From assembly GCA_030704615.1 (NCBI GenBank), contig CM060734.1, positions 39,556,001 to 39,620,000 of the forward strand: a stretch of 64,000 nt of DNA, written 5' to 3'. Below, piece after piece: positions 8,936-47,497 of this stretch. The first letter of the stretch is position 1; every line of letters starts with the position of its first letter. A program made the translations under genes and the position numbers. Under the pieces are notes generated by a model. It saw nothing but the letters and a program-made list of their open reading frames with translations. It did no database searches and was not told the DNA's origin. The DNA comes from Takakia lepidozioides (Eukaryota > Plantae > Bryophyta).

Positions 8936-9430
8936 CCTTGAACCTCTTGACTCGTTGTAGGATCCGATCCCTCTCCTTGGCAGTCACACTAGCTTCCGTG
9001 TCTCCAGTGCGGAGGTAGTCCAACACAACCAAATCCTCATGTATATCTCTGGCACCACCTGGCTCATCACTAGCCTCAGGGTCCTCAGACACTTCGTCTA
9101 CAGTCATCCCTGTTGTAGGTCCAACCTGACCTCCCGATGCCAAGATACACAAAAAGGCAGATGCATGTCATCCCGGCACCATCTCCTCGTCTGTCTCACC
9201 ATGCCACCGAGCTCCAGTGTCATCTTGCTGGCTCGTGCATGGATTGCGACTCAATCCATCCGCATCCCTATTGACCAAACCCGTGCACAACCTGAACATG
9301 TCTCTCATGCTCCTCCACCGTAGCACGAGAGGCAAAGCAATTCCTGCAAGCCTCAGGAACCGCCGTATACGTCGTCTCTCTCCTCTAGTGACAATAGGTC
9401 CAATGTCAGGCTCCCAATTGCCCTTCGTAA
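8936..9430 (-). pseudogene. Collapsed RT/RNase H remnants and integrase N-terminal region
   Basis: WEPDIGP...EACRNCFA (pre-RT) joined to TVEEHERHV (post-YxDD of RT), joined to VVH/GLVNRDADGLSRNP (RNase H end), then DIHEDLVVLDYLRTG...KERDRILQRVKRF. Confidence 0.7.
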
Positions 9431-9769
9431 CTACAACCTTAAGTCCAGCAAACTTAGAGGTAGAGGACACGTCACGTGGTTGCTATGCCGCAACCTCTTG
9501 AGCAATACTCCATGCATGCTCAGTCAATGACAAGGCCTCATCTTGCCCCATCATCTCATCCTTGAGGACCTCCTCAACCCGAGAAGAATCCCCAACCTCA
9601 TCCATCATAGCCGCCTTGGCTGCCAACTCCCTCTGAACCTCGAGCACCTCCCATGTGTGCCATGGATGTCTAACCCCGTGGTCCTCACATGCTCGCCCCC
9701 ACTCACTGCCTGTACCGTCTTGGTAGGCAGAGAGACCATGGAGGGAAGTGTACTCCACACTCTGCGTTG

Positions 9770-10730
9770 CTCAGCCATAGCCAAGCTGATAATCCAGGTC
9801 AAGCGATTGAGATCCATTGCTTGCCCCAACACTTGACGACGTGATGCCTCAGAAAGAGACGACACCGCCGTGGTACCAGTGGTAAAACATATTGCCCGCT
9901 CACGTTTGTTAGCATTAGGCTCCACTAACTGCTGCAACTGAGCATCCTACAGGAGGCCAGGTCCACTATCCCGGAAAAGCATGCGATCCTGGGAAGCTGA
10001 GCAGTGTAGGTAATGCTGCTCGTGGTTGACCCACCTTGTTGACCACTGCCAAAGGCGAACGGTCATCGTGTCTCACACGCTGAGACTGCCTCCTTGTGTC
10101 CAGAATGCTATCCACTAGATGTACTGGCCGCTGCACCTCATCAAATGCACGCTTGAGCAGTGCGGGTGGCATCAAGTTAGTCCACCATAGCCGTGGACGA
10201 TGAGCCCGTGACCCCACTGTAGCTGCATCTAGCAACACTGCTGACCCAAGCCACAACCGGACTTGATGCACACTGGCCATCACCCTGGCCCGAGAATCGC
10301 CCATCAGTGGCACATTCTCCAAGATGTATGCTGGAGATACAGCTTGTTGAAGCTGCAAGTGGCGCAAAACCCGCACCATCTCCCAAAACAGACCCGACCT
10401 CGAGTCTCGCAATCCATTGTCATGCCCGGCTGATGAATGCCCTTGGCAGGGCCAACCTGCCACTACCAGATCAATGGATCTAACCCGCTCCAAATCTTGC
10501 GCCCCCAGCAACGAAATGTCTGCTGGCAAGACCTGCTGATATCCACGAATTGCAGACACCAACAACAACTCAGGGTACCGCTGCACCAACTGAGCAACAT
10601 GACGAAGTGAAATGCATCGTGCAGTCTCATCCCTCTCCACATACAGGTAACGCCGAACTCATACACCTGCCTGTAACACAACAGCCAATCCGGTGCTGAT
10701 CCCGCCAAACAAGTCCAGAAGACAAATGCC
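9770..10730 (-). pseudogene. DNMT3-like C5 cytosine DNA methyltransferase domain (retrotransposon-encoded)
   Basis: Motif I LDLFGGISTG, II YVERD, IV AGWPCQGHS (catalytic Cys codon 10446-10448), VI YILENV, VIII DAATVGSRAHRPRLWWTNL, IX KRERAICF, X RRQVLGQAMD. In frame with the protease apart from nonsense codons at 10848 and 10659; one frameshift near 9970 and a stop at 9947-9949. Confidence 0.92.
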
Positions 10731-11129
10731 TTCATCCGGACACTGCCACACAATAGGTGTGGTGTCCAATGGAGACAACTGAGGTGGTCCTGGTGCAATC
10801 CCCGCACTCTCCTCCTCTCCTGACGGTACAAAAGCCTCCACCCAGGCTTATTGCACCCGTCGATCAGCATCCCGCTGCAAATCCTTGCTCGTGTCCCACA
10901 ATGGAGTTTGAGCAATTATGGTAGGCAACTCTGCCATACCATACATGTCCTCCTGCTCTCCCAGAGGTGGCACATCCTCTGAATGAGCGTTGCCCTCAAG
11001 CAACTCTCCAGGCCAATTCACTGCCGTTGTGAATGCTACTAGTGTCGGCATCTTGTCTCGTTGGGCAACCGCAACTCCTCCTATGATCGTCACAGGGAGC
11101 TGCACACGCCGGCCCTCCCCTAATTGCCA

Positions 11130-11480
11130 TCCAGGCCTATAGGAAGCTGACTCCTCCCAAAAATCTAGAGTGAAGCCCATGGGGTACAACACTGCCCCAC
11201 CAACCAGGATATCGTACGAGACCGCGTCTGTCACAATGGCCTTGGTTCGCATTAGTGAGCCATCTGTAGGGTGATCCGGCCGTAGTCTGATAGCCAACTC
11301 ACGCCGTGTCATGCCCCGAGCCTGCTCCGATCCTCCCAGAGACGTCTGTATCTGGAAAGGACAAGGCTCCATATCTGCCTCCGTGAGGCCCAAGCCTGCA
11401 ATAGCAGCTCTACCCAGCATCAATGGCTGAGCTCCCGAGTCCAACAAGACCTGCAGTGGCCGGTACCTCTTGCCTGCCGG
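11130..11480 (-). pseudogene. Retropepsin aspartic protease
   Basis: QVLLDSGAQPLMLG catalytic motif and YDILVG motif in ORF 10848-11663. Confidence 0.85.
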
Positions 11481-12359
11481 TCCACTCAAACAAAAAATGC
11501 CATCCTGGTTGTCTAACATGACAACTCCAGGTGTAACCATGGCGCGCTCAATGGCTGGCCTAGATGGCAGCTCCATCAACCAGGCAGCTGCAGCTTGCCA
11601 TGGCGCCGCCGTGGCAGTCTTGACCCTCAAATCCGAGGATCCCTTTGGCACTACACCTCCCACTATCTCCGCAGAAGATGAAGTAATTCCCCACTCTCAC
11701 AGAGTGTAGCTGCCAGCCTGAACACCTCAGCTGGTCTTACCCCCGGCGTCGCAATCATGGTAGCCGAGAACAATGGAGCCTCGCACACAGATGTGGCCGC
11801 TCCTAGCAGCACACTAGCTACCGTAGCCTTGGCAATACTAGGTAGTGGTGCTACTCGTGTAGCTCTCCCCAATGGCATAGTAACCTCCGCCTCGGTAATA
11901 GTCGGGCGAGAACTAGGTGCCATGGATGACGTCGACACTGTCTCCGCCAATGTGAACGACTGAGGAAGCTTAGCCTGACGGCTTGCCTCCCCACGCTGTG
12001 GATCCAACTCCACCTCTGCACCTCGTGGCTCAGGAACTCGTGCTGCTCCTCGAGTCACGGCTGCAGCAGACTCCACCTGCACTAGTGGTAGTGTTGCTCC
12101 ACACATGAATCCCATGCCTCCCATATCTCCTCCCTCAGGAGCAGGAGATGGACCATCCGGCCTTAGAGCCGGTACCACCTGAGCTGTAGCCATGGCAGCG
12201 AGCCTGTACTCTAGCTGCTGAAGCCGGTTGGCCATGCCTTGGTCAACACCCTGACCTCCGCGTCCTTGGCCTGCACCTCGTGGCTGGCCACCTCGTCCTC
12301 TCTGGGCTGCTCCACCTCGCCCCCGGCCACCATTGTTCCCTTGGAACTGGCTTGGGCGC

Positions 12360-13430
12360 AACTCAGGATGCAAACCAAAACAGGGCCTCTCCATGCCCGT
12401 GTTTGCCACAATGCCCACACTGTAACTGTGCAGGCTGTGCATGTGCCGGGTACTTTGCCTCCCTCTGGGCAATCCTTCTTGACATGGGGTCCTCCACATG
12501 TCCAGCACACCACATCCGCCCGTTGTTGGCCAGCAAATGAAGGGAGAGACCCCTGCATCTGAGGTCCTCTCTGCCCTTCCCTGAGCTTCACCTGAGCCCC
12601 CTTGTTGCCTTGAGCATGTTGAGGTAGTGGTTGGCTAGGAGCACCACTACCCCGTGGTGTCTCCTTAGCAAATCCCACCATGATCACTCGTTCCTCCACC
12701 ATGTTGAGCTCTATCCGCTCTGCGAGCAAAAACACATTTGCAAGGTGGGTTGGGCCGCTTGTAGGAGAGTTGCATCCCGCACCCTTCTCCTCAGCTCCTT
12801 GTCCAATATCCCATACCAGAATTGGACTGCCTGAGCTTCCGTAACCCCTTGGGTTACATTTATCAAGCGCCTCATGCGAGTGAAAGCCTCCCTCAAGCTC
12901 TCGGTCGGCTTCCGTTGGAACTCTTGTAAGCTCCGCAACTTTTCTGTCCTCACCCCTTGGTAGTTCCATCTCAATTCTTCGAAGAACTCCACAATAGGGT
13001 TGAAGGCAGGCACGGGTACTAGTGCTGGTGCGGTAGTGGCTTGGGTGGACGTCGTAGCTACTGTACCACCAGTCCCACTAGTCCCTCTACTACTTGCTGA
13101 AGCTGCCGGTGCAGCGGCAGGTGTAGCCACTGCCCTCGTGGCTCTAGTGCCCCTAGTGATGGAGACATAGTCGGGTGACCAGTACATCCTCCACTCCTCG
13201 ATCTCAACCTCATGCCCCCGCCTGAACTCATGGTAATCATCCATAGGCGGCCCTCAGGTGCTGAAACAGCCCTTCTATGCCATGAAAGGTGTAAATAGTT
13301 GTGGATTGCGCATTTGCTGCAAATCACACCAACTATCAAACTCTTGGATAAAATCATCCAACTTGATGGTGCCCACCGCCCCAGAGTACCTTCGTGGCCC
13401 CTTGGTAGTTCCATACATCTCCTCCATTGT
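12360..13430 (-). pseudogene. Retrotransposon Gag with two zinc knuckles
   Basis: KLDDFIQEFDSWC; FFEELRWNY...LQEFQRKPTESLREAFTRM (retrotrans_gag-like); CWTCGGPHVKKDC and CGHCGKHGHGEA(fs)C knuckles. Confidence 0.8.
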
Positions 13431-14399
13431 GTCCCACAACAATGGCAAAGAAACAACTTTTACCGCCGGTATGAGTCCTCCTGATTCACAATCCGAATCA
13501 GAACCTTCCGTAGAAGACACAGGAGGTGAAGGTGGCCTAAACCGCACACCTCGTCTCGTGTACCCACTAGTATCGTTAGTGCTCGAACCGGCACTGTCCC
13601 CAGCAACTAGTGGCACCTCCGTGTTGACACTCAACCGGTCATGAACATGTCCCTAACCCCCTCTCCACAAGGTAACCGGATAGAGAACCTATTGCGGCTT
13701 ATGGTTTGGAATACTAAGTTCCTAACATAGCCTACACCTGTACTTGCATCCACCGCAAGCACTCCTATGGTTGGCTGGTCATCACCTCCAACCTCACCAC
13801 AGGAGAAACAATGATGGTCTGGCTGGTCATCACCCCAGCCTTGAGGGCGGATTCCCTTCTGGCTTGACCCTCCATATTCTCGACCGTCCTCATCAACTCC
13901 TTAGATAGTCACCATCGACAGCATGCTCTAGGACTGGCCGGTGATCAAATCCGGACCAATCACCTATAAAAACAAGCGCCCACACAAAACTAGCATGGCG
14001 CACAGTCAAGCATGCAGGTATGGAGGGGATCCAAACACAAGAAATCAGAACGACAACTCCCCCACACCAAAAACAACTCCACGGTGTTGCTCCTGCAATG
14101 ACACCCCAGCCCAAACCCGGACTGACTCTTGCCTCCACCTACAGAAAGGTCTTGGCCTAATGAGAAGGTGAAACTACGAGGAAGAGAAGCTAAAGCAATG
14201 CCTAACCCCAGCATGCCCTCATCCCAACACTCTTCCTCTCCTCTCTTCCCTCACTTGCATGACCATGGGAATATCATGAAGATACTCCTCAAACCGCCCT
14301 CCACGAGCTTCATAATTCGGCCTTCAAGACCACATACCAGTCCTTAGGCAGTCCACCAGTGCCTCCACGAGTCAGTACAGGCCGTCCACAGGTCAACAC

Positions 14400-15612
14400 G
14401 GGCCACCACAGACCAGCACAGGCCCACACAGCTCACAGGCCACAACCTGTCACAGCCCTACACAGGTCACAGGGTCACAGCCCCACAGGCCGCAGCCTAT
14501 CACAGCCCCAAAGGCCACCTGTCACAGCCCATCACAACCCCAAAGGCCACAGGCACAGCCTGTCACAGCCGTACAAAGGTCACAAGGTCACAACCCCAAG
14601 GCCACAGCCTATCACAGCCCCTCACAGCCCCTCACAGCTCGCCACAGCCTGTCACAGCCCATCACAGCCCCACAGGCCACAAGGCACAGCCTGTCACAAC
14701 CCCTTATAGCCCGTCACAGCCCACAGGCCACAGGGCACAGCCTGTCACAGCCCCTTATAGCCCGTCACAGCCCCACATGCCACAGGGCACAGCCCATCAC
14801 AGCTTGTCACAGCTCGCCACAGCCTGTCACAGCCTGTCACATCCCGTCACAGCCCCACAGGCCACAGGGCACACTGTCACAGCCCCTCATAGCCCGTCAC
14901 AACCCACAGGCCACAGGGCACAGCCTGTCAAGCCTCACAGCCCGTCACAGCCCATAGGTCACTGAACACAGCCTGTCACAGCCCTCATAGCCCGTCACAG
15001 CTCGCCACAGCCTGTCACAGCCCATCACAGCCCCACAGGGCACAGGGCACAGCCTGTCACAGCCCCTTATAGCCCGTCAAGCCCCACAGGCCACGGGGCA
15101 CAGCCTGTCAAGCCCGTCACAGCCCGTCACAGCCCCACAGGCCACTGGGCACAGCCTATCACAGCCCGCCACAACCTGTCACAGCCCCTCACAGCCCCAA
15201 AGGCCTCAGCACGGCCTGACACAGCCCTCACAGCCCCTCACAGACCCTCATAGCCCCAAGGCCACGGGCACAGCCTGTCACAGCCTCTCACAGCCCGTCA
15301 CAGCCCCACAGGCCAGGGGCGCAGCCTGTCACAGCCCGTCACAGCCCCGAAGGCCACTGGCGCAGCCCGTCACAGCCCTCACAGCCCGTCACAGCCCCAA
15401 AAGGCCACCGGCACAGCCCCTCACAGCCCATCACAGCCCCCATGGCCACCGGCGTAGCCCGTCACATGCCCTCACAACCCGTCACAGCCCGAAGGCACCG
15501 GCACAGGCCCTCACAGGCCCTCACAGCCCGTGACAGCCCCGAAGGCCACCGGCACAGCCCCTCACAACCCGTCACAGCCCCAAGGCCACAGGGACAGCCC
15601 GTCACAGCCCAT
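14400..15612. repeat. Minisatellite array (core CC(C/T)GTCACAG, ~11 bp units with GGCCACAGGGCACAG spacers) in the element's 5' non-coding region
   Basis: Dozens of CCCGTCACAG / CCTGTCACAG / CCCATCACAG / CCCCTCACAG variants with higher-order blocks. Confidence 0.95.
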
Positions 15613-16084
15613 CCATGGCCGCTCTGGCAGTTTAGCCATTTTTCCAAGGGGTTAGCCACGCCAAGCTAGGGTTGTGTCTCTTGGACTCTAGGCTTCTTTC
15701 CACCGAGCTATGGCGGCTGTGAGGAAATCAGCAAGGTATCTTGCTCTTTCGGCTCCCACACACACCATAGTAGCCCTAAGCCATGAGGTGGTTGCCACAA
15801 ACCAAGCCTTCTTTCTCATTTAGCCTCCCAAACACGCCCACTAAACTCAATGGCAAAAAACCAAGCCCTGCTGGTTCCCAGCCCTTGTGAGCACTCATTC
15901 AAGCACTCTCCTTGGCCATAGCATCTGTCTTAGACCCTATTCCAGCCCCCTACGCCTGCTGCTTCAAGAGTTGCCCTCCCTTCAAGCTTGAAGTTGAAAC
16001 CCCAACTCACATAGGCCCTACAAGTGCTTTCTTTCACTCCAAGTGGAAAAACCAGCCCTAGACCTTCCGTTCTAGCTCTCTAAA

Positions 16085-26814: not shown

Positions 26815-29800
26815 TCATGGCCGAGCCAGATTGGGTAACTCAGTAGAATTGGGCAGAGGCGTAGACGAAGACTTTCTTGCTGCTCGATTCCATCTTATAG
26901 CAACCATGAGAGCATCCCCTTGTGGACCAAGGCCCCTTCGTCCCACCAGCTTCACCCTAAATTTCTGGCACAAATAGTAAAACCTACCCTGGTCTCCTCC
27001 TTTTACTTCCCTCAACTCGAATGCTTGTTGCCGGGTTATGGTGGTGTACAGATGCAAGCGCTGATCCACTGTGGCGCTTCCAACATTCTTCTTAGCTGTT
27101 GGTCCATACACCAGCCTCACCAGAGCTAATGAAAGTGGATCGTTAGTCTGATGGTCAAAAATAATGGAAAAGCTCCCAAACTCAAGGTCAGGCTCCTTGA
27201 AGAGATCTGCTAATGTGGCTGCGTATGATTGCACATCTTTGGGAATGGCTCGCTCTGCTTTAGGCGCCACTATTCTAGCTGCTGTAGCTGCTGCTATGTT
27301 GCTAGCCTCTCGTAGGCCACTTAGAAATGCACCATGCATGCTTGCTGGATACCGGCGACTGGTGGCCTCACCAGCAAAGAAGAGGTGGCCATCTCCAACA
27401 CTCTCCGCTAATATATCATAATCATCCCCAGATGCACCTACTGCCACATTCGAGTAAGAGCCATAACACAGGTAATCACTGCCCCACCGTGTACACACTG
27501 TCTGGACTGGATTTGGCACTTGAATCCCTCTAGGCTCATATATGCCTACAAACCCCAACAGATCCCCCCAGAATATGAAACTGACTTGAAAATTCAACAT
27601 GGCCTTCAAGTCTCACTTCAAATGCAAACATAAACTAAGAAACAGGATTAAAGGTAAAGGACACGCAAGTGTAAGTTCGCCAGCAAAGACTGAGGACATT
27701 CCATTAGTACCCAAGGAAGAGCCAAGCGTTCACGGTGCTGCTATGCAGAAAGATGATTAAGAGCACCAAAAATGATGTACATTTCTATACCCCTTGCATG
27801 AACAAGAAGGGTAATACAAGTTTCCTTACAACATGAAGCTCACAACATTCCGAGCAGATAATTCCAAAATAATAATCGCAATTCAACATTGTTGGTAGGT
27901 ACCTCTGAGAATGCTCATGACACGAGTCACAGCTTCCAGGGGAGGCTTGCTTTCAAACTCAATGGCTGCCTCTCCAGCCACCAGGGCTAGTAGCAGAGGC
28001 CCCCCGGAAACAGCAGCATAGCTGTAGAATAGAAAATACTCGCCTCGTTTGCTGGGATGCTCTGCAAGATGCCCAAAGGTGTCGAGTTCAGGGCCCCAGA
28101 AGACTTCCTGGAAGAGCATTACCACCTTGTTCAACAAACCAAACCCAAGCCTATCAATAGCATCCAGCTTGCGTTGTGGTAGCTCCGGTTCAAACTTAAC
28201 CGTCCGCTTCTTCAATACCCCGAGTGGCACCGTACAGAGTGCCACATCACCTTCAAACACCTGCTCTCCTGCTGTCACTTGCACACTTCCGCCTCCGTAC
28301 CTTATGGTCTGTACAGTCTTGCCATAGAAAATAGGTACATCCTCCGCCAAGGCACCAATAAGTTGCACATTGCCCCCGGGAAGAAAGCAGTGATCACCCC
28401 CCATTTCATAGGGGTCATCCTGGTCCCAAAACGCCAGTGATAAATTAGTCAGCAACCCTGCATTTGCATACTCTAAATTGGCCAAATGCCAATCATACAA
28501 CTGCCTCTCTTGAGGTGTCCCTCCTACCCCGTGACCTTGCCGTAACTCCTCCATTGCCGTGCCTAATGAAATGTCATTAGCAACCTGATCCATGCCTTCT
28601 CGCAACTTGCTAGCCTTGTCCAGCAATTTGTTAAATTGTGACTCCACCTTGGTATCCACATCATCTCTCACAGATTGCCCGTCAGGCTCATAAAGTGGGC
28701 ACTTTTCGCGGATCTTGTGGAGTGGTAAGCCCAACTGTCTTGCTAGCACCCCCAGAGGATTTCCATGAATCCCAGTTATCACACTCCCCCCTAGATCAGC
28801 AGCAGCTGTAAGGTTCTCCCCCTCCATCTTCTTGGTGTACACCCTACCCCCCGGCCGTTGCCTTCCTTCCACCACAACCACTTTGTGGCCAAATGCTAAC
28901 AGCTGCCGGGCAGCAGCCAAGCCTGCTAGCCCTGCACCTATAATGATCACCACTGCCTTGTCAGGTTCAGCCGGTATTGCAGACTTGATAGCAGGGGCAA
29001 CCCCAAAGTTAATGTACCCATGCGCAAGAAGGAATTTGTAGGCCGCTGCAACCAGGCTCTTGTACTGGCTTCGGATGGTCTCCATCACTGTCTCCTGATC
29101 CAACCATGCATTCACATTCTCTCTCCACCTGGCTAAAATATGATTGCGCACCACAATATAGTTTGCTTCCTCCACACCACCCACTGTGGAGACCACACCT
29201 GCCTCCATCTCTTCCTCCATCAGCGACTCCCTTGGAAATCCTATAGATGCGGCAATCATGGCCTCCACATTCACCTCTTTCTCCTCACTTGCCGGCTTCC
29301 TCTTGCGGCCCTTGGCTGGTGAAGGCCCTAATTGTTGCTCAATCATTGCATCCAAGGCTGTTTCATCATAGGTTGCACGTACCTTCTGCCGCACTGCTCG
29401 TATACCTCTGCCTCCTCCTCCTAGTTCTATCACCTCCTCTATGGGGTCCAAGCTCTCCCCACGTCTTCTTTTCCTCTTCTCCTCCATAGGTATGCCCTCT
29501 TGTCCACCGGAAGCACTAGGAAGGCCCCCCCCAGGTTGCTCAGCCACCGTCATGCTTCCATTGTGCTTGATAGCTCCTTGTGTTGTGAAGTTCGGGCTCA
29601 AAGGCGCCCTACCTACATCACCCTCTACACTGGTGCCATTGCTCTCAATCTGTAAGCTCCGTTCATCTCCTGTCCTCTCTTTCCAGCTTGCTGCTAGCCC
29701 TAACCCAGGGCCTTCTCCAGTCAAAAACCCTAAATCTGCAATAGGAGCAAATTGGGTCACATCCCTTGTCAACCCCTCCACCAGTCCATAATTTGACAGA

Positions 29801-29877
29801 TCGAGTTCTATATCCTGTCCCATTGTGTGTGGTAGGGAGGAACCCTCTTCGTTCACCCTTGCTCTTTCTTCCTCCAT
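26815..29877 (-). CDS. FLD: LSD1-family lysine-specific histone demethylase, FLOWERING LOCUS D-like (SWIRM + FAD amine oxidase); exons 29877-27903 and 27545-26815
   Basis: SWIRM (YIVVRNHILARWREN...HGYINFG), GAGLAG FAD motif, RPGGRV, FAGEATSRRYPASMHGAFLSGLREA, and an FLD-type C-terminus EPDLEFGSF...RQQAFELREVKGGD...KLVGRRGLG; GT-AG intron keeps frame. Start codon uncertain. Confidence 0.9.
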
Positions 29878-31184
29878 TGAACTCAATTGCTTTTCAGTCT
29901 CCTCATCCTCCCATGTAGAATCTCTCGTATCCTCCTCGCCAGAGCAAACACGCGGTGTGGTAATCACTTAGAGATCAACCACACCCTTGGGGTAATCACC
30001 TCCCTCCCCTCGAGATCAACCCATTTAGTGCGACTCTCGAGACCCGGGTAGTAAAGACGTGGTTGCTCTCAAGATCAGCAACGGCCATGTCGTTCCGCCT
30101 CCCTCGCCGCACCGCGAGTCATGCACCGTTTCCAACTCCGAATTCCTAGAGACCTTCTTGCAAAAAAGGTGACAACTATGTCTATCTTGGGATACTCCGA
30201 ATCAGGGTTTGGAGATGCTAACAGAAAATGATTCTCGTCCCCACTGTTGTAAATCTCTGTACCTTGCATTCAGCACTAGTACATTCATCCTGTGAATTCC
30301 ACAGCCCCAAAATCAATAAAGTGCGATGATCATCTGAAGTACATACCAATAGGGTTGCGCAGATATCAATTTTTTTTATATCAGCCCCTTAGGGATGTCT
30401 GTGTTGTCCCCTTTTGGGGTTTGGAGCTTTCTCATTTCTAATATCCATCCGGCTGGCGCCAAATATAATTTTTAAGCCTACCGTATGTAATTATTAGGAA
30501 ACAAATGGACTTTAAGTTATGTCTGGATGGTGGATGGTCACCGGGGTTCACTAGGTTATCCAAGTTTCTTTTATTGAAAAACAAAATATAAACTCAAAAA
30601 TATAGTATATTAAAAATACCTATGAGCTATTTACAATTATTATGGTAGCCTAACTGAGTCAGTGCGCCTACTAAGGTGTTTTTTCTCAATGGGACAGAGG
30701 TTCTATTGTAGATAATGCCGAGATAAAAGTGTCCCTTCAAATCTCAGGAGAAGGCATCATAAAAAGGGAAGTTAAATCTGGGTGCCCTTTCAAATCTTAA
30801 AAAAGGAAGGCTAAAATGGAGAGCTTGTTCTCAACATCAATCTCTTGCAAAACAACACATTGACTTATAATATATTCTTAGCAATCAGCGGGGACTTTCC
30901 CCGCCCTTTTCCAGGGTTTGCTTGGGTTTACCCTTGGGAATTGTCTTTGTGAGTGAGGTTGTAGGGGAGCCCTATAAGTATGTAGGTGAGTAGATGATCA
31001 AACTAAGGGGAGATGGATAGGTTTGTGTTGTGGTGGATGCAAAGTAATAATGTGATAGAGGTTCAAGACAATTTAAGTTATGGTGAGGTGTGTTTGTGTT
31101 TCAGTTCATGTGGCAACGTACAACCACTTATAAGGTAGCATTGTATCATAACCACTATGCCATCTGTTGGATGCTCTGAAAAAA

Positions 31185-31899: not shown

Positions 31900-34800
31900 T
31901 CGAGGTCATGTTATCCTTCAGTAGTAGTAACAACATCTATGGCCCCGGCCCAGCTAGTGGTATCACCCTCATCCCAACCCCACCAGCAAGAAGCTCCAAT
32001 GGTGGTGACGGTGGTTTGCGACAACACCAGTCAGAACGAGTTTGTCTCCCTAAGCAGCCATACATCTAATCTGACCCCCTCCAACAAGACCATTTGCTTG
32101 CACTTGAAGATCAAACTGAGGTACACAGTCCCAACATCACCCTTCTTCCACTAGTCCACATTTCTGGATACGCTCGGAGTCCCACAAAAGTCACCTCACC
32201 ACTAGATTCTCTACCTCGCTCGACAATAGGTCCATGCTCAACCCTCCTTCTGCCCTTGGACCTTCCATTCGGTCGACTCCTTCAGCTGCATCACCCCCTC
32301 CTACAGCTCCATACCTTCCACAACCACCAATTGTTCATACTACATAACATATTTCTTGCTCCGCTTGCGGTCGCCTTTTCGCCCGAATTAGAGGTTTGGC
32401 TCGCCATCAATGCACTTGCACAACTTTTCGGCAAGCTAACCATGAAGGTTCCTTTGTGCCCACTCCCCGAATTAGTGTCTTACAAACTCCCCTCCATCCA
32501 CTGTATATTGGACATGGCTCTCCTCATTTGATGTACTTTTGGAGCTTTCATTTGGGATTGCCCCGCCCCGGCCTCTACACACACATCCCGGTGCCCCTTC
32601 GTCAAGAGGTCCAACATTGCTTTCGTATGCCTTTATACAAACTGGCCCGGAATCCTGGTGATGTGTTGACGAGGTATCTTCTTTTGTTGTTTGCCCAGTG
32701 ATGTTTGGTCCTGCCACCACATGATGAAAGCTGGTCATGGAGAGACTCGCACCCGGCTCCGATGCTTTTTCGTGGGAGGCTGGGAGAATCTTTAAGAAGA
32801 GCATTATCTCCGGGCACAAGCCCTGGGTGCGCGTGCTCTTGCTGACACTTCCTCACAATCAGACTCTTCTATTCATAGACGACTTCAGCACAGCCTCATG
32901 CTAGGACGGGTAGGCGAGTTCTCGTGCAGCTTGCGCTCTCACACCATTTGCTCCCGCCCCACCTTTTATGGACACTATTGCCGCTCTGCATGCTCTCCAT
33001 CCTGAGGCAGACAACACGAGATGATCTCCCATCGCGCAGCTCACTAACTGCGAACCTTATTCCCCCAAGGGTCTTCGAGTGCGCCCCGGCGGGTTTATCC
33101 AGCTTTTCTCAATGACTTCGAGCCAAATCAGGACCTTCAGCTTGATCTCTCTCTCTTCACCCAAGCGTTTATTCGCAGCTCGCATCTTTCCACACTAGGA
33201 CCATCTCGTATGTTATACGAACATTTGCGTGACTGTTTTTCTTCAAAAGACTCTGCTAGTGGCCGCTTCTCCCAACTATTTCAAGTTTGTTTCTACATTG
33301 CCGCGTGGCCGTATCCCTACTCCAATGGCACGTCTTGTCGGAGCCTCCCGACTAAGCAATAAACTTTAAAAACAACATCCGTCCCATTGCCATTGGGAAG
33401 TCTTGTATTGTCTTGTCAGCCGTTCCCTTGTTATGTAGTACCGTGATGCATTCTTTACCCATCTCTTCCCACACTAAGTTTGGCGTCGCCACTCCAGTGG
33501 TTGTGAGGTTGTGGTACATGGGAATCAGACTATTTCGACCTTCACCCGGACTCGGTTGTGTTTCAATCGATGTAGCAAACGCCTTCAACTCCGTCTGCCG
33601 TAGTGCCATCTTCCAAGAACTTCGTTCTGCTGGAGGGGGTAAATTCCACCAACTCATCCCTTTTATTAGACAATTTTATGCATTTGCCGCCGTTTTTTTT
33701 TATAGTCACCATTCCCATACATGCAACTATACCGTCATCCAGTCAGAGGCTGGCACCCGACAGGGGTATCTTTTGGGGGCACCTTTGTTTGCCATGGCAC
33801 ATCTGCGCACCCATTACGTCATCTGCAAATAGAATTTCCAACTTGCCAGTCTCAAGCAGTTGTTGACGACACTCTTGACATCATTGGCCTGGCTTCCAAG
33901 GTGCTCTTGGCGTACAACCACTTCGCCACTCAGCTTTAGGGTGTGGGCTATTGGTTCAACCTTGCTACTGTGTGGCATGGTCTCTAGCCGCCTTGCTCCC
34001 AGATTTTGTATCTCCTATTGTACACTTCATCACGTCGTCTGACGGCATTTGCGTCTTGGGCGACCCCTTCGGTACCACCTCTTTGACTTCTTGTTTCTTG
34101 GAGAATGCCCTTGATCAGGAGGTCATTCATTCTGACCTCCTTCCTCGGCTCGGGACCTACATGTAGCTTATGGCATACCAACGAAATGCTTTATCCAGCG
34201 GCCATCCTATCTTATTAGGACCTTCTCCCCTACTCCTGACATGCGGTTATTGTCAAGGTTTGATGCTACCATCATGAATATCTTTGGTCATCTTCTGAGG
34301 ACCGGGGTCTTTGGATGGATCCGAAGAAACTTTAGCTCACCAACAAGCTATCCTTCCCATCTCTTTCGGAGGTGTAGGCTTGCTCTCCACAATCAGCACT
34401 TCCCACTTTGCATTCTTGGACAATTGGGCATTGATCGCCTCTGCCCTCACACCCTGCTAAGATCTGTGTAGTCAGTGACCCCTGCTCATGGACCCCACTG
34501 CTCACGTCGAAACTGACACTTTCCCTTTCCAACAACATCTTTGCTCTACACAAGATCTTCTTCCGGCACCAGCACGAGCGCATCTTCCCCCATTCAAGCA
34601 ATTGCTTGACCAAGATATCGATCACCTATACAAGACTATCAAGGATCGTGTGCACCGACACTCCTTCCCCAACATGCTTTTCAATAGTTCTTTCTCTAAT
34701 GTACATCATGCTGGGCTTTTATCTTGTGTAGGCCTAAGTGCAGGCGTATGGCTGTCGGCGCGACCCACCATTACCCCCTTTCGTTTGTCATTACCCATCT

Positions 34801-40191: not shown

Positions 40192-43100
40192 TTAAGGGAA
40201 GAGAGCATTGACAAACGCTTGAGCATCAAATGGTTGCAAGTCATTCACCCCTTCTCCAACACCTACAAATTTAACAGGGATGGAGAGCTCATCCACCACG
40301 CTCACCTGTACATACCAATCACAATCAACTTTTGCGGGTTGCCAAGCATATTTTTCAACAAGTTCATGACAAACTGGTGGACAAGTTCATGCATGTGAGA
40401 AATAATAGGGTATTGATTTTGTGACCTGCTTTCCTCATGTGAAGTCCTGAGGAACTATTTTTGGGCCTTCAAAGCTTGCCTATGAAGGAGTATAGTAATT
40501 ACACCTGCTCGCCTCTGTATTGTAGAACTTTCAAAAGTATTAAGGGCACAGCCATTCGTTCCATAAAATCAGCAAAGACAGCTCCAGTTGAAAAAACCAC
40601 ACTTTCTGACGTATAGGCAAGGAAGAATACTTACCACACAACCACCTCGAGCAGTACCGTCAAGCTTGGTTAGAACAAACCCAGTGACACCAACAACCTG
40701 ATTCACATGAAACAAAATCAGGAGGGTTCAGAGCTCCTACGAAGGCGACAGCTGCAACTTGATCATTTAGGATAAAAGTCGGACCTGGTTGAATTCCCTT
40801 GCTTGTGGAAGCATGTTCAGCCCGGTGGTGCCATCCAGGACTAATAGAACCTCCTGTAAATCACAGAAAACAATGCCACTTCACTGACAATGTTGAAACA
40901 CGTGCCAAATTACATCTGAAAACATGGAAAGGGATTTCAGCAGAGCTTTCCTGCATCAAAAAATAAATAATGTTTGGAACACCCAAACAAAAAAGACCAA
41001 TGATTTCAAGGACAAGATGCGCCTCAAATTGAACTGCTCATATGTACAGTTTACATTTTGAATGGCGTCTGAAAGACTATTTAGAGATGCACTAGGTGCT
41101 ATTGGCTCATTCAGCCAAGTCCTGATTTTTATCTTAAAAATATTTGTCCTAAAGCCAACTGTCTAAGGGAAGGCTTTGACCTGATTGATGGCAATGTTTG
41201 AAAGTAAAACCTCTACAATCCAAAGCCTACAAACTCGACCCAACAGAAGGACGTGTGAGGATGACATTCATTATCCTAACACATACCCAGATATACATAC
41301 ATTGGGGGCGCTTGGGAGAGTCTTGGTGACAGCACGCTTGCAAGAACGCAACTCCTCCATCAGATTATAGTTCGTATGGAGTCCTGTAGAACCCTTTCCC
41401 CTACAGGTGACACTCATGTCCCCATGATTGACAATAATCACACCATGTTGACAGCCAGAAACAAGGTCTTCGACTACAAATAGACTAACAATTGATCAGC
41501 TACTTCGTCATCCATACTACTTTCTAAATAGCATCTTTGCTGCCACAATACAAAGTTCTTGAATCTCCACTGGGAACGATGAAATCTAAGTGGCTATGCC
41601 ACCCTAGCAAAGAGTTCAAGGTTGTTGAGCATGGCCTCCCTAAGTAAACTGCATGGAGAAGCTCTCATCACAGGGTGCTCTTACTAAGGGTATAAGAGGT
41701 GCTCACGTCCAGATGTGTCACACAGAACCAGGTCAAAATCCTGTTCCATACCCCGTCGAACAGCCTGTGACAAAACTGCAACATGCACATTGAAATTAAG
41801 TACATTTACTCCATACACAAGCCCATGATGTTAGCATACAGAAAATCTACTGTTGCGTCATATATACAATTCGTCTTTGAAGAATGTGCATTGACACCTG
41901 TGGCAGGCCTGGTCTTCTCTCCTTCAGCCACAGTAATCTCTGCGCCTGTTCTCTGAGCCCAAACCTCCAACTGCTCACTAGCTGCAGCTCTAAATGTGTC
42001 ACCTGCTGCCATGAGAACCTTTAACCACCAGCATCAGTAATGAAAAGCAACTTCAGCAAATGAGATTATCAAATCCAACACAGACCTTGACATATGTGAC
42101 AGACAGGTGGGAACAACTCTCTCACAACTCACGAGGATAGGAAGATAATATCAGCTCCTTGTAACAGTATGATCCATTCCCCACCATTCCACAACATTAC
42201 CGGTTCTGAAAATGCATTAACAGACGGTAGTGGACCAGGAAAGGAGAAACAGCAATTGCAAGTATGAGGATCTCACAAAAAAAATGTGGAGGGCAGAGGG
42301 GATTACATATGTATTTAGATACCATTGAACAAGAAGTTACTAGAACGTAGAGGGTGAATAGATAAACACAGTTGATGTGGAGAGAAAAGACATGAAGAAA
42401 CACCTTGACATCCTCCTGTCTAAATCTGTTCGCCAACTTTCCTGCAAAGGGAGGTAAGGGAAATGCCTCAGCAAAATTAATTACAGAAGAACATACCAAT
42501 CAATGAATGCATTACAGATGCTTTAAGATGCCATGGTCAGGCACCGGCTTTTCTGACCCTCATTGACATAGTAAGCTAGTGAATTACAGCTGAACAAACC
42601 CTGCAAATATGCACAAACAAGAATGCAACATTTTCATGCTTACCAATGGTTGTAGTCTTTCCCCCTCCATTGACACCAACAATCATAATGACAGCTGGAC
42701 GACTGCATACACCAAACCCCATTCAACCCTTCAATTTGTGCCAGTTATGAGTTGAGGTCCATGATTAAACGAAACCAGCCAGATTGAGCAGCAGAAGGGT
42801 CTATTTAACTGTGCCTAGTGATAAGGAAGTTGTCAATAATATGCAGCTCTACATATACCAACTTAAATGTATTTTTTTAATGGCAATGCTGCAAAATGGG
42901 AGATTCAAACCTGGTGCCAAGCTGGAGCTCAGTGGTGCTTACTTTCTCCGTCAGCAGCCTCACTATATTTTTCTTCAGGGCCACCTGTTGAAGGTCACAG
43001 TAAATTCATGCAAATCATCAACTGCAGACAGGAACATGTGTCACAAAATTGGTCTGTTTTCGGTCCAGACAAGATACCATTTGGAGAGCTACACCTTTAA

Positions 43101-44119
43101 GCTGTTCTAATGCATCACCGACGTTAGTGAAAAATTAAAATTCCAGAACCACAGGGGAAAAATTGCAAGCATTGTTTACCTTGATGTCAGGACCAGACTT
43201 TAATTTTCCAGCCAGAATGTCTTCGCGAAGGCTGTCGACTATCTTAAGAGCAGTTCTTGGCCCGAAGTCTGAGACAAGCAACGCCTGTAAGGGGTCATGG
43301 ACCACACCATAAGTCTGCCTCCTCTCCCTCTTTTCGTTCTACAGTCTGCTGTTAGTAGAGCTTGCAACGACAAACAGGATGAGCGAAAAGTTAGACGACA
43401 TACATCGAGGAAAATACAGACAATTAAAAGCAGGGTAAGGCGACACATAGGAACACAAATATACTGACAGGGATCGAACGTAATCTTGTGCGCAAGCAAC
43501 AGAATCACAGGGGGATACGGGAACGCATATTTGTGGGAAGGCAACAACTCGGTACCTCACCTAAAGGGAATAAGAGAATAAAACCGGAGATTGGTCTGCT
43601 CGTAGATGGACCTGATATGGGCAAATAGATGAAATTCAACACAGATATAAGAGATGACTAACGGGCGAGTTGCTTCACTACAGGTTCGTAGCTAGTGGAT
43701 AGTGAACAAAAAGGGAGTACCTCTTCCAGCTCATCGAGAATATTATCGGACTCAGAAAGGTTCCAATAAGTGAGCAGCTCATCGACAACTGCCAAGTTTT
43801 CACGGGTTTTGGAAAACCCCGAAAACAGCAGCTGTATGTCACTCTTCGCCTTCTCCTTGATCACACGCCCGAGCCTCCCAAGGAATCCTACCTTCTCAGT
43901 GGCACACCTCACACCTATAATGCTAGAAGACTCTTGCCTTTGCCCTCTACTTTGTGGACAGTCGACTACAGGGAACCAAAGAGGAGTTGCCACAAAAGAG
44001 CGTGAAGCCTTGTATAGATTTTCCCTGAAATACGATCGAGATGACACTGGCAATGTTGCTGTGCCGCAATGTTGCTGCGCGGGGTTAAGAATGCCAGGTT
44101 TCGCGAGTAAGATCGCCAT
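40192..44119 (-). CDS. cpFtsY: Chloroplast SRP receptor cpFtsY; 11 exons: 44119-43721, 43284-43180, 42984-42911, 42702-42644, 42441-42404, 42018-41898, 41775-41707, 41383-41301, 40853-40785, 40697-40635, 40305-40192
   Basis: Transit-peptide-like N-terminus; LFSGFSKTRENL, ALLVSDFG, GVNGGGKTT (G1), DTFRAAA, DTSGRL, TKLDGTARGG, GVGEGVNDLQPFD; all junctions GT-AG. Confidence 0.95.
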
Positions 44120-44430
44120 CGCTGACAAGCGAGGGAAGAGCCCTCTTGAAATCAACCGACTTTTCTACCCTTTGCTTTGCCAGGGGCCCCGCCACCCGTT
44201 TAGCCCATTATTGCCCTTTATAAAGCTATACATTTTTATCTCATCTGCAAACAATAGTTGATAAAATCCCAGAAAACGTCGCTGTAAGTGCATTATAATA
44301 TTTTAGAAAATGATTCAACCATGATATTATGACAATTTATGAGGATGTTTAATATGACAAATACAATTTATGGAAACTATTACAAAATGTAGTTCACAAT
44401 TGGATCACATTTTGGACAAACATCCGCGCC

Positions 44431-44448
44431 TATATATATATATATATA
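44431..44448. repeat. (TA)9 microsatellite
   Basis: Direct reading. Confidence 0.9.
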
Positions 44449-44574
44449 ACACTTCCGGAAGGAACCGTAAATTATGGTGTCTCTTGACCCCGAAGGGTAG
44501 TGTCTTCCAGCCAAGCCAACAACACATTATGCCCCGCATTGGATGGTAGAGCCATTGCGCAGCTTGTTTTTTAC

Positions 44575-45098
44575 TCGCCTGCAGCCATTCGTAGAGATGT
44601 TGCTTCAGTGCTCAACCTTAACGATTCGGACGTGTGACACGTGCGTGTGATTAGCACGCATAGTTGTTTAAGAAAGTCATGCCCATGGTTTTTTAGAACC
44701 TTGCCATTGCACAATACCGCGATACGTTGATGTATGCCACTATACGTGGTGGGGGCTATCGTCCCGGAGCAGACTGCTCATACGACCCTGGATGTGACAG
44801 CATGACGTATTATCTTGAGGGTTCGAGAGGTGTTGCCCTCAGGAGTCCTAATCTTGAAGGGTCAGGATGACATGACTTGGAAGGACCATGTGCGTAACTG
44901 CGTGCCATGTCACCACCCAAATGTTGATGGCAGGATTGACCCAAAGGTTTGAGGTGCATGTTGTGTGGGTCTGCCAGAGGGGTAGCCACCATGCTGGTAT
45001 GTGATCGATGTTCAAGAGGTTGGCATATGGGATACTTGACACCACCTCTTGAGATGGTTCCTGATGGAGATTGGTTATGTCCACCTTGCATTGGATAG
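44575..45098 (+). mobile_element. Gypsy integrase C-terminal fragment ending in a PHD finger
   Basis: VMPMVF*NLAIAQYRDTLMYATIRGGGYRP...ILRVREVLPSGVLILKG...DHVRNCVPCH, then CMLCGSARGVATMLVCDRCSRGWHMGYLTPPLEMVPDGDWLCPPC* (C4HC3 with one Cys>Tyr; 44955-45089). Confidence 0.8.
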
Positions 45099-45332
45099 TG
45101 GGAGTGGATACAACCATGGAAAGCTAACAAAAAACACATGGCCAAATTACTAGGAGACCATACACGAGATCTTGGCTCAAGTTCACTGATTGCAAGACGA
45201 CGACTAACGATGGGGCTACTCTTGTATCTGGCCTCTTGTAGAGTTTGAGTACAATTACAACCGTGCACCCTAAGATGATTGCAGACAATTCCTACAAGGG
45301 CAGGATGTTGCTCAATGGAGGAGGCCATGATA

Positions 45333-45500
45333 ATCAATTGTTCATACTACAGAACGTATTCATTGCTCGGCTTGCGGTCATCTTTTTGCTCGAATCAGAG
45401 GTTTGGCTCGCCACCAACACACTTGCACGGCCTTTTGGCAAACTAATCATGAAGGTTCTTCTGTACCCACTCCCCTCGGTGTTTTGCAAGCTCCCGGGTT
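45333..45500 (+). repeat. Second copy of the CRE-like element zinc-finger segment
   Basis: Clear nucleotide homology to ~32326-32492 (CAATTGTTCATACTAC...GAGGTTTGGCTCGCCA...CATGAAGGTTC); encodes IHCSACGHLFARIRGLARHQHTC. Confidence 0.85.
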
Positions 45501-47497
45501 TGTAGTATACACAGCGTTGCCACCTTCTATAAAACACCGCTCGATAAACCTCGCTGAGAAGGAACCCGCAGCCAACAAAACTCCTGCGAGAGGGAAGGGA
45601 AAGGGTACAAAAGACAAAGGGAAGGAGAAGGCCACCCAAGGGGAGGCTGCGGGGGGTGAGGCAGCGCAGACCCCAATTGCAAACAAGGAACGAAAACGCA
45701 AGGGGAAGTTTGAGCCATACTACGAAGTGGAGCACCCATCCAGAATCCAGCGAGAATGTAAATGCGAGCTTGTCAATGATTCATTCCTTGCCATGATGGA
45801 GAGTAGAAAATCTGGTTACACTGGAGAACCCTCTCAAACTTGGGGCAAGCTGTGTGCATTCCTTGAGTTGGTAAGCCAATTCCCAGTGTTTGTTGATGTT
45901 AATGTTTTCCATTTTGGATGGTGATTGAATTTTTGCCTTCTGTCTGTTTTCAGGTTTCGAAGGGGCAATGTTGGATCAATGGTACTCAAAAACCCTATGG
46001 TGCCGACATGGTGATTCCCCTTGGGCTCTGCTATTATGTATATTCGGCGATACGGCAGGCTCGATGTACTGCTCAAGAGAGGAAGAAGATGCAAGAAGGA
46101 AGGAAGAAGAAGAAGAAAGGATGTTTAATCTCTGTTGCACTAATGCTATTGGTTAATCTAGACAATGTGATCTCCATGAACTTGATGCTGTATCAATTTC
46201 TACAAATATTTTTTTCCACAGCCAGAAACAAGTGGGGCTACGATTAACTTCTTAAGTTTTAGTGATCAGAAAGACCATTGGAGCTCTGAAAAGCCTCTGT
46301 GGACTCTACTTCCAACTCTGAGAATCATAGAGTATGAAGTATGAAGTGGGCAGAAAAAGAGAATTTACATTGAAGTAGTTCTAAGAGGCCAATTGACCAT
46401 CAAATGGAAAACCGGATTTTAGGCAAGAATTGAGCCAAATCCATAGAGGACCATGGACCACTTAACAGAACACACACATCCAGGCAACATATCATAACAG
46501 GCAGGTACTCCAGCCAGAAAGAAAATTACGTCGGCAGACCATCATAATTGAAATGTGCAAGTATTTGAGACTGTAAATCTCACTGCATTCGTGTTAAAAT
46601 TGATCTTAGCCATAAGACTTTGTTATAGAAACAGGATGTTTGCATCCACGAAATATATGGAGAGGCATGTGTTTCAGGTTCAAATTGAATACAGTTAGCC
46701 ATCTGACTTGACATAGAAAGAGGCGTTTTGCATCCATGAACAGAGCACGTGATTCACACTCCACAATCCAACCTATGCTTTTGCTTATTACACAGTAGTA
46801 TCGCTTCTAATAGAGGAGAACAGCACACGGCCAGAAACAGAACAAATCACCATCTGATAGTCTCAAACTCCTCATGTACATATCCCTCCAGCCAAACTGA
46901 TGGAGGGTGACAGGTCCCTGCCGTATCTGCAACCAAAAATCTTTCTAAAGGCTGCCTGTTCAACAATGGCTGAACACCAATACAGAACCTAACATTACCA
47001 GTTATCTGGCTCCAGCTTTCAGAGTCCAGCATTAAGCAAAACGGGTTCAAAGCTGAATCATGCAGACCTCCCACACTTTGCGTTGGACACATTGATTGTC
47101 TGTGTTGGGCAATTGACCATTCATCACACTGCCAAGTCAAAACCGTTTATCTGTATCCTTGAAGCTCCTCGAGATCTGGTCCATTTCAACAAACAACATA
47201 CATTGGAACACAACACAGGGTTCCCCAGCCCTGATCGTCCCCTTGCACATCCTCTCTCGCTAGTGAGCGACCTACTTGCTCTCCTGACACTGGTTTTAAG
47301 CCCCAAACAGAACACACTTTTTACATGCATGGTCTAGAGAGTGCCTTTGGTTGTACTAATAGTGATGGACGTTATACATGACCAAAATTAAAAAGGCAGA
47401 ATATAGTAGATTAAAACCACTCCCCCAGACAGAGAACCCTTCAGTTTCCAACAAATTACGACTACAAGATTGATATGAGCTGGAGCAGAATCCTGAC

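Follow-up and report, generated by a model that had tools for sequence, protein, structure and literature searches.

A decayed 3' end of a Ty3/Gypsy pol gene with a PHD finger, likely from a liverwort Gypsy-DNMT3 family

Introduction

Host DNMT3 enzymes join an ADD domain, of a class that binds histone H3 unmethylated at K4, to a catalytic domain for DNA methylation. Transposable elements bearing DNA methyltransferases (DNMTs), transposable elements bearing PHD fingers and LTR elements that combine a chromatin reader with a DNA-methylation writer are already in print. A DNMT3-like domain in a streptophyte Gypsy element was described as KnitGypsy-Dnmt3 of Klebsormidium nitens (de Mendoza et al., 2018; PMC5890265), and the name Gypsy-DNMT3 is used for these streptophyte elements in a preprint (bioRxiv 10.64898/2026.05.21.726589). 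In the only published test, the Gypsy-DNMT3 catalytic domain produced no methylation in yeast, a result that was called inconclusive (PMC5890265). The wording of the main text and of the supplements searched of that article, apart from the drawing of its Fig. 4c, mentions neither a PHD finger nor Marchantia.

Chromatin readers at the end of Gypsy polyproteins are known from the chromoviruses, whose integrase bears a chromodomain at its C-terminal end (Gao et al., 2008, cited in PMC6673714 and in the two preprints mentioned here). Retrotransposons with PHD fingers were described in green algae (Perez-Alegre et al., 2005; Kapitonov and Jurka, 2003, both cited in PMC6673714), and PHD fingers in retrotransposons are called common in two sources (PMC6673714; bioRxiv 10.1101/2021.11.30.470311). 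Recently, LTR elements provided with a chromodomain as well as adenine and cytosine methyltransferases were named EpiLTRs (bioRxiv 10.64898/2026.05.21.726589). A Gypsy-DNMT3 lineage in liverworts was not reported in the texts searched and, apart from the 2018 article and that preprint, the literature searched contained no description of DNMT-bearing retrotransposons of liverworts or Marchantia or of a pairing of PHD and DNMT.

This article describes a short fragment located in a stretch of 64,000 nucleotides of eukaryotic DNA (the window), which is rich in transposon debris and has a GC content of 41-60% by 2-kb bins. The fragment (44578-45098, +) is a decayed, 5'-truncated 3' end of a Ty3/Gypsy pol gene. 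It likely stems from the liverwort Gypsy-DNMT3 family to which the DNMT-bearing element at 8.9-13.6 kb also belongs, and was left by a separate insertion. An initial annotation of the window had taken it for the 3' end which that element has lost, completing a single reader-plus-writer retrotransposon; this was right on the architecture of the family and wrong only in its literal form.

A Broken Integrase Tail Ending in a PHD Finger

The fragment represents the last ~170 residues of a Ty3/Gypsy Pol, pieced together from three overlapping frames of the plus strand. It begins with the post-core integrase region (44578-44765, +), corresponding to residues ~846-905 of the reference ORF2 protein P0342 and interrupted by one frameshift and three in-frame stops; the peptide quoted in the initial annotation lies inside this region, in a single plus-strand frame (44697-44765). 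It is followed by the SH3-like integrase C-terminal tail (44768-44945, +), which contains one in-frame stop, and by the PHD finger (44949-45098, +), whose frame differs from that of the quoted peptide and closes with the TAG stop of Pol. Compared with relatives, ~14 residues are deleted at 44765/44768, just 5' of the SH3-like tail, and ~7 at 44945/44949, just 5' of the PHD finger, so that the alignment path crosses a total of 3 frameshifts and at least 4 in-frame stops. One frame seemed to align, across 44728-44797, with the 14 residues that are lacking; this was put down to an overlap, and a deletion is preferred in view of the loose ends at 44764/44768.

The 52-aa frame at 44940-45098 matches the Pfam PHD family (PF00628) with an E value of 1.3e-9 and 38.4 bits, against a cut-off of 24, and no chromodomain was detected by Pfam in the frames of the window; weak matches under the cut-off (Phage_Bbp19, DZR_2, Herpes_UL49_1 and others) were treated as noise. 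By tblastn the fragment matches Gypsy integrase tails with E values of 3e-23 (P0038) and 6e-23 (P0037), and proteins of the type RT-RH-INT-PHD (reverse transcriptase, RNase H, integrase, PHD) with ~1e-23 to 1e-28 overall. A frameshift-aware alignment of 44578-45089 to the Marchantia protein P0189 gave 113 identical residues out of 169 aligned (66.9%), the corresponding values being 67.5% for P0193 and 64.9% for P0190. On P0342, which has its integrase (rve) core at residues 687-780 and its PHD at 991-1035, the fragment covers residues ~846-1036, so that its homology is continuous with what lies past the rve core of RT-RNaseH-INT polyproteins. The PHD match, the missing chromodomain and the integrase-tail homology together bear out the initial description of a Gypsy post-integrase segment that ends in a PHD finger.

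Seven of the eight zinc ligands of the PHD finger are kept; the sixth is replaced by Tyr, leaving the C4HC3 pattern incomplete in this copy, while the full pattern is conserved in 189 of the 193 relatives' tails with a full-length PHD match. Weak homology may extend back to ~44510 (the alignment to P0093 starts at 44501). Neither the window self-comparison nor the search of the window for this family revealed an integrase core, RT, LTR or repeat flank beside the fragment. A family-specific 3' untranslated stretch (45099-45255, +) follows the stop codon, and the cover by other copies of the family in run X1 ends at ~45238-45255, roughly 150 nt beyond that codon; since this high-copy cover stops there, the remnant is cut at its 3' side too. 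The fragment is therefore a remnant of ~0.6-0.7 kb, with its ends cut near 44510-44578 (5') and 45238-45255 (3'); it is dead and does nothing itself.

Run X1 contains the unique DNA of the window, as do X2-X4, and may be the window's own source. Counting contigs with at least 80% likeness to the respective window stretch, 1174 X1 contigs fall on 44200-45500 and 4641 on 8900-10800. Summed word depths, which are not copy numbers, reach 2e4-1.9e5 by bin over 44640-45255 and 5e4-3.8e5 throughout 8900-10800, against ~40 in the unique flanks; the fragment and the DNMT stretch both form part of very abundant repeats, of comparable order. Where the window copy has its in-frame stops and its Tyr codon, another letter stands in nearly all the remaining X1 contigs, and the loose ends of other X1 copies supply both missing stretches, which identifies these defects as private to the window copy. 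X1 cover is low over 44508-44639, and this was not counted as evidence. One long X1 contig (10074 nt) carries the tail with the PHD; it is not among the 8 pieces listed of the 4641 on the DNMT stretch, from which nothing follows.

Surroundings of the Fragment

A gene for an SRP54-type GTPase on the minus strand has exon-like frames at 42576-43338 (-), with a further open frame at 43658-44164 (-); the fragment sits upstream of the gene, ~400 bp from its first exon-like frame. Another host gene (26815-29967, -) shows SWIRM and flavin amine oxidase domains in two exon-like frames and resembles an LSD1-type histone demethylase. On its 5' side the fragment is bounded by a second high-copy repeat (44420-44507), which includes a (TA)n tract and reaches a summed depth of up to 2.6e4 in run X1; 48 loose ends fall at 44497. 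On the 3' side it is bounded by a repeat at 45335-45495 that matches 32328-32491 at 81.7%. This repeat is unrelated to the fragment, represents the sole match of 44000-46500 to the rest of the window, and opens a frame with a Cys/His-rich motif. The open frame at 33.4-33.8 kb, preceded by the copy at 32.3 kb, had no Pfam match; that the 32.3-kb repeat forms the 5' part of a non-LTR element is a guess.

The DNMT-Bearing Element at 8.9-13.6 kb

The only other piece of the fragment's family within the window is a minus-strand element at 8937-13565. Its ORF1 part (9689-13565, -) comprises Gag (13565-12430) followed by the protease and a DNMT3-like domain (11690-9689); it is 36-61% identical, by segment, to residues 19-1270 of protein P0359, and the C5 methyltransferase domain is recognized by Pfam (PF00145, E 8.6e-14). 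ORF1 ends at an in-frame TAG (9483-9485, -) followed by CAA CCA (junction 9477-9485). The remains of ORF2 (8937-9482, -) include its start, from 9482 to ~9330, as well as the end of RNase H and the integrase N-terminus ahead of the zinc finger (9281-8937). About 50 residues of ORF2 are thus found after the TAG, and then an internal deletion removes RT and most of RNase H; at 9283, 9326 and 9330 other copies have loose ends that run on into RNase H, RT and the ORF2 start, which confirms this deletion in the window element.

The deletion is clean, from about ORF2 residue 30 to the end of RNase H (9283-9330, -), and the Marchantia protein P0014 likewise passes from the DNMT to the end of RNase H and on to the integrase core. 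Such RT-less forms could be recurrent or propagated deletion derivatives. The cut end of the element at 8937 faces a Helitron-like insert (6402-8835, +), which may have caused the truncation. This insert shows a Helitron_like_N match (E 1.7e-18), and a weak, sub-threshold match to AAA_19 in its frame was taken, unconfirmed, as helicase-like. Just past the Gag end, on the 5' side of the element, the stretch 14263-15669 is GC-rich (64% GC, CpG observed/expected 0.36) and contains long proline/serine/histidine-rich open frames (+) which look like a tandem repeat.

Architecture of the Intact Relatives

The best matches of the window DNMT are proteins of Marchantia polymorpha (up to 71-74% identical) and Calypogeia fissa (69-71%), in which the DNMT domain located by Pfam precedes RT and RNase H (e.g., P0002 and P0007). 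Remoter matches such as P0030 have the order RT-RNaseH-DNMT-INT-PHD, with tails that match the fragment. When the RNase H-integrase junction of Marchantia P0002 served as query, P0037 and P0038 (RT-RH-INT-PHD) were returned, which match both window pieces, and a search with the tail of P0037 returned Marchantia Mp_7g09570 (P0189, 612 aa), where a protease end, parts of a DNMT, an integrase C-terminus and a PHD occur in one gene model. The latter search also returned chlorophyte proteins with an INT-PHD tail from Haematococcus, Pleodorina, Volvox, Tetrabaena and Chromochloris.

Complete elements were found as well. P0365 is a single protein of 2811 aa that reads Gag-PR-DNMT-RT-RH-INT-PHD in one frame; DNMT, RVT, RNase H, H2C2, rve and PHD are above the Pfam cut-offs, and Gag and protease were located by BLAST probes only. 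A Calypogeia-like pair consists of P0359 (1319 aa, Gag-PR-DNMT) and P0342 (1040 aa, RT-RH-INT-PHD), each recorded on a contig of 8781 nt and assigned to the same contig solely on that equal length; C. fissa P0351 and P0352 are also RT-RH-INT-PHD. With P0342 as query, 80 metagenome loci (L001-L080; 61-88% identical) were fetched, 41 of which are informative in that their sequence extends 1500 nt or more upstream of where RT/RH is first matched. The DNMT lies upstream of RT on the same strand in 37 of these 41; among the other four, three are cut inside RT and one (L006) begins at ORF2 residue 1. The complete order Gag-PR-DNMT-RT-RH-INT-tail-PHD is found in 17 loci. Locus L044 is intact, with an ORF1 of 1369 aa (DNMT, and a protease just below the Pfam cut-off) and an ORF2 of 1047 aa (RVT, RNase H, H2C2, rve, PHD). 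No chromodomain was detected by Pfam in P0342, P0365 or L044 ORF2.

The layout Gag-PR-DNMT-RT-RH-INT-PHD proposed in the initial annotation is thus real in relatives, as seen in the 17 complete loci, L044 and P0365. Contiguity of the DNMT part and the INT-PHD tail, which had been suggested as a check on the genome, was looked for in these relatives: DNMT-bearing copies end in this same tail, and PHD-tailed copies carry the DNMT at nearly every locus long enough to tell.

The position of the DNMT varies in the wider group. Of the 150 top-ranking relatives of P0037, 50 have it between RNase H and integrase (42 of the 150 together with a PHD tail), 8 have it before RT, and 15 have a PHD tail with no DNMT in the protein. 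The two positions are exemplified by P0030-P0032 and P0044-P0164 on one side and P0365, P0197, P0071, P0130 and L044 on the other, and in a quick DNMT tree most of the before-RT domains cluster, near those of the other type. One capture followed by a move may account for both positions. In five proteins (P0153, P0155, P0159, P0168 and P0185) the PHD is found between RNase H and integrase, not at the tail.

The Junction Between ORF1 and ORF2

Intact relatives are built as Gag-PR-DNMT3-like, an in-frame TAG, and RT-RNaseH-INT-PHD, and some lineages have no stop and a single frame. At 31 of 47 junction places, examined in 45 loci of L001-L080, the ORF1/ORF2 junction reads TAG followed by CAA or CAG, and at 5 more of the 47 TAA is followed by CAA; the remainder are decayed or different. 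L044 reads TAG CAG TTA (5083-5091) and L046 TAG CAA TCA (4661-4669), in the same frame as both ORFs, and the first Met of L044 ORF2 is residue 117. The classic leaky stop codons of plant viruses have CAR-YYA after them, and the junction looks like a programmed stop-codon readthrough site that would leave the methyltransferase on the Gag side. The lineages of P0365, P0197 and P0368 lack a stop at this place. The proposal that one polyprotein carries both histone reader and DNA-methylation writer accordingly applies to P0365, with its single frame, and must be amended for the sub-lineage of the window, in which an in-frame TAG separates DNMT and RT.

Family Membership of the Two Window Pieces

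No DNMT, RT or LTR accompanies the fragment, and its membership in a DNMT-bearing family is read from its relatives (37 of 41 loci) and from its placement in trees. One and the same pair, P0359/P0342, is the best reference for the window DNMT (identity 73.8% over 221 residues) and for the window tail (73.3% over 150). Over the 23 references that hold both DNMT and tail, the two identity rankings agree with a Spearman correlation of 0.81, which overstates independence as these references are mutually related.

The trees come from quick searches, with SH-aLRT as their only measure of support. The window DNMT groups with Calypogeia-like and Marchantia sequences in the DNMT tree (SH-aLRT 99). In the tail tree, for which the window reading was carried across each break by an X, the window tail falls inside a clade with SH-aLRT 95, its nearest neighbors being P0339, P0342, P0292 and C. 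fissa P0351. This clade has 13 other members: 7 show the DNMT before RT directly (counting P0342 through its presumed tie to P0359), and 6 are ORF2-only proteins typed by their clustering with DNMT-before-RT elements in a Pol tree. In the Pol tree, P0037, P0038, P0039, P0190, P0292, P0194 and P0339 form one clade (local SH-like support 99) with L044, P0365, P0197 and P0342, which have the DNMT before RT, P0342 again by its presumed tie to the DNMT-bearing P0359. P0038 pairs there with L044, being nearly identical to L044 ORF2, and P0039 pairs with P0365/P0197. On the basis of this clade, the seemingly DNMT-free proteins of the P0037 type are regarded as ORF2 products of two-ORF elements.

PHD-tailed elements with no detectable DNMT do occur in the wider clade, for example P0075, which has 810 residues ahead of RT. 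At the nucleotide level, the window pieces showed no match to the related loci outside coding DNA, and the fragment none past 45092. Judged from these sequence comparisons, it is highly probable that both window pieces come from the same family, the origin of the fragment resting on its relatives.

Alternative Origins of the Fragment

The fragment might instead derive from a different, DNMT-free family of PHD-tailed Gypsy elements sharing only the type of integrase tail. Proteins of this kind exist in the wider clade, where P0075, P0047 and P0067 form a group of their own, and the 15 PHD-tailed proteins devoid of DNMT among the top 150 relatives of P0037 would fit as well; the upstream side of the fragment offers nothing to decide between a DNMT-free and a DNMT-bearing origin. 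However, most of the near relatives that appear DNMT-free are ORF2-only products of two-ORF DNMT elements, as with P0038 and P0039, the window tail sits with DNMT-before-RT and assigned ORF2-only sequences, apart from the P0075-like ones, and the DNMT is present in the great majority of the informative close relatives. We consider this origin improbable. Still less credible is a host origin of the PHD-coding stretch, as an exon or as a PHD gene that was domesticated: its closeness to the first exon-like frame of the SRP54-type gene would invite that reading, but the stretch has in-frame stops, frameshifts and a lost zinc ligand, is continuous with integrase-tail homology and is a high-copy repeat in run X1, so that the chance of a host origin is practically negligible.

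Derivation from the Gypsy-DNMT3 family still leaves the question of whether the fragment is, literally, the 3' end that the element at 8.9-13.6 kb has lost, as the initial annotation would have it, a rearrangement having relocated and inverted this end. Both pieces belong to the same lineage, show similar decay and do not overlap, the element stopping at about ORF2 residue 593 and the fragment starting at ~846. Against this, the fragment is on the plus strand and the element on the minus strand, 35 kb away; host genes (an amine-oxidase/SWIRM gene, a DnaJ gene and the SRP54-type exons) and other repeats lie in between; ORF2 residues ~594-845 are nowhere in the window; the cut end of the element abuts the Helitron-like insert; and the window self-comparison revealed no flank or repeat shared by the two. 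Moreover, independent remnants are to be expected of a family with thousands of X1 contigs. Given the opposite strands, the distance, the intervening host genes, the missing residues and the very high copy number, two independent remnants are far more likely, and that the fragment is literally the end of this element is very improbable indeed. The claim of a lost 3' end is consequently supported for the family, through the shared references and clades, and not supported for the two individual pieces.

Proposed Role of the Reader and the Writer in the Living Family

The nearest solved chains to the PHD finger are those of CHD4, PHF12, ATXR5, KDM5A/B, PHF21A, DPF3, UHRF1 and AIRE, which we take to be readers of the H3 tail unmodified at K4 or R2; none of the 60 solved chains listed for this PHD is known to be an H3K4me3 reader. 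The nearest solved chains to the DNMT are DNMT3A/B/C (E ~2e-9), then plant DRM, and in alignments intact DNMT copies keep the residues of motifs I, IV, VI and VIII.

In the living family, a PHD finger at the tip of the integrase would tether the integration complex to nucleosomes, in the manner of the chromodomains of chromoviruses; by this analogy in the placement of a reader at the integrase C-terminus, PHD-based targeting appears an even prospect. The finger would then bias integration toward chromatin devoid of H3K4 methylation. A preference for the H3 tail unmethylated at K4 is proposed because the nearest solved PHD fingers belong to that reader class, and is put forward more tentatively than targeting itself. 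ORF1 would yield the DNMT3-like domain along with Gag and protease, and this domain would methylate the cDNA of the element or its landing site; RT, integrase and PHD would be produced only upon readthrough of the TAG.

Protease processing of polyproteins is established for LTR elements, and in this family it probably separates the DNMT from the PHD. An intramolecular coupling of the two in one mature protein, as in DNMT3 with its ADD domain, to which the initial annotation had alluded, is not indicated for the liverwort type, in which over 1000 residues, with RT, RNase H and integrase, lie between the two domains, in the sub-lineage of the window together with a stop, and processing likely parts them. 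Such a coupling is more conceivable in the algal type, with the DNMT directly before the integrase.

A broader scenario, which we regard as speculative and on the whole unlikely, is that the Gypsy elements of a whole green-lineage clade possess a miniature system of de novo methylation of their own. The PHD on the integrase, of the class that reads H3 unmethylated at K4, would pick the landing chromatin; the DNMT3-like enzyme of ORF1, made in Gag-like excess, would mark the new copy or its cDNA; and the leaky TAG-CAA would set the ratio of methylase to integrase. By mimicking host DNMT3, with its ADD reader and methyltransferase, the element would settle quietly and could thereby attain very high copy numbers in the genomes of liverworts.

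Significance and Comparison With Known Systems

The window stretch itself matters little, being inert debris upstream of an SRP54-type gene. Of wider relevance is the abundant Gypsy-DNMT3 lineage in liverwort genomes to which it leads, represented by name in Marchantia and Calypogeia and by cover in the organism of the window. The PHD tail accompanies the DNMT across two domain orders, whereby the question of why histone reader and DNA-methylation writer should be united in one transposon becomes testable, and Marchantia is a model plant with good chromatin maps in which to address it. The conserved in-frame TAG-CAA junction adds that the methyltransferase is placed on the Gag side of a putative expression switch.

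The family of the window resembles KnitGypsy-Dnmt3 in being an LTR/Gypsy element of green plant lineage hosts with an unrearranged DNMT3-like domain within its coding region. It differs in its liverwort-like hosts, the best named being Marchantia polymorpha and Calypogeia fissa, and in the location of the DNMT between protease and RT, before an in-frame TAG; no sequence named for K. nitens, whose published elements have a DIRS-like repeat layout, was among the database matches returned. With chromoviruses it shares a histone reader appended to the integrase C-terminus past the SH3-like region, but the reader is a PHD finger and not a chromodomain, and the mark predicted from its nearest solved relatives is the unmodified H3 tail rather than H3K9 methylation. 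The PHD-bearing retrotransposons of green algae (Haematococcus, Pleodorina, Volvox, Tetrabaena, Chromochloris) have the same INT-PHD tail, whereas in most algal relatives the DNMT lies between RNase H and integrase and in the liverwort type ahead of RT.

EpiLTRs, as described in the preprint, likewise combine a chromatin reader and a DNA-methylation writer in one LTR retrotransposon; their reader is a chromodomain, their DNMT clade is sister to DNMT4, their hosts are others and they possess an additional adenine methyltransferase. Finally, the family parallels host DNMT3 enzymes by uniting a DNMT3-type catalytic domain and a PHD-type reader in one genetic unit; in the host the two are parts of one enzyme, while in the family described here they are far from each other, with RT, RNase H and integrase between them, to which the sub-lineage of the window adds a stop codon.
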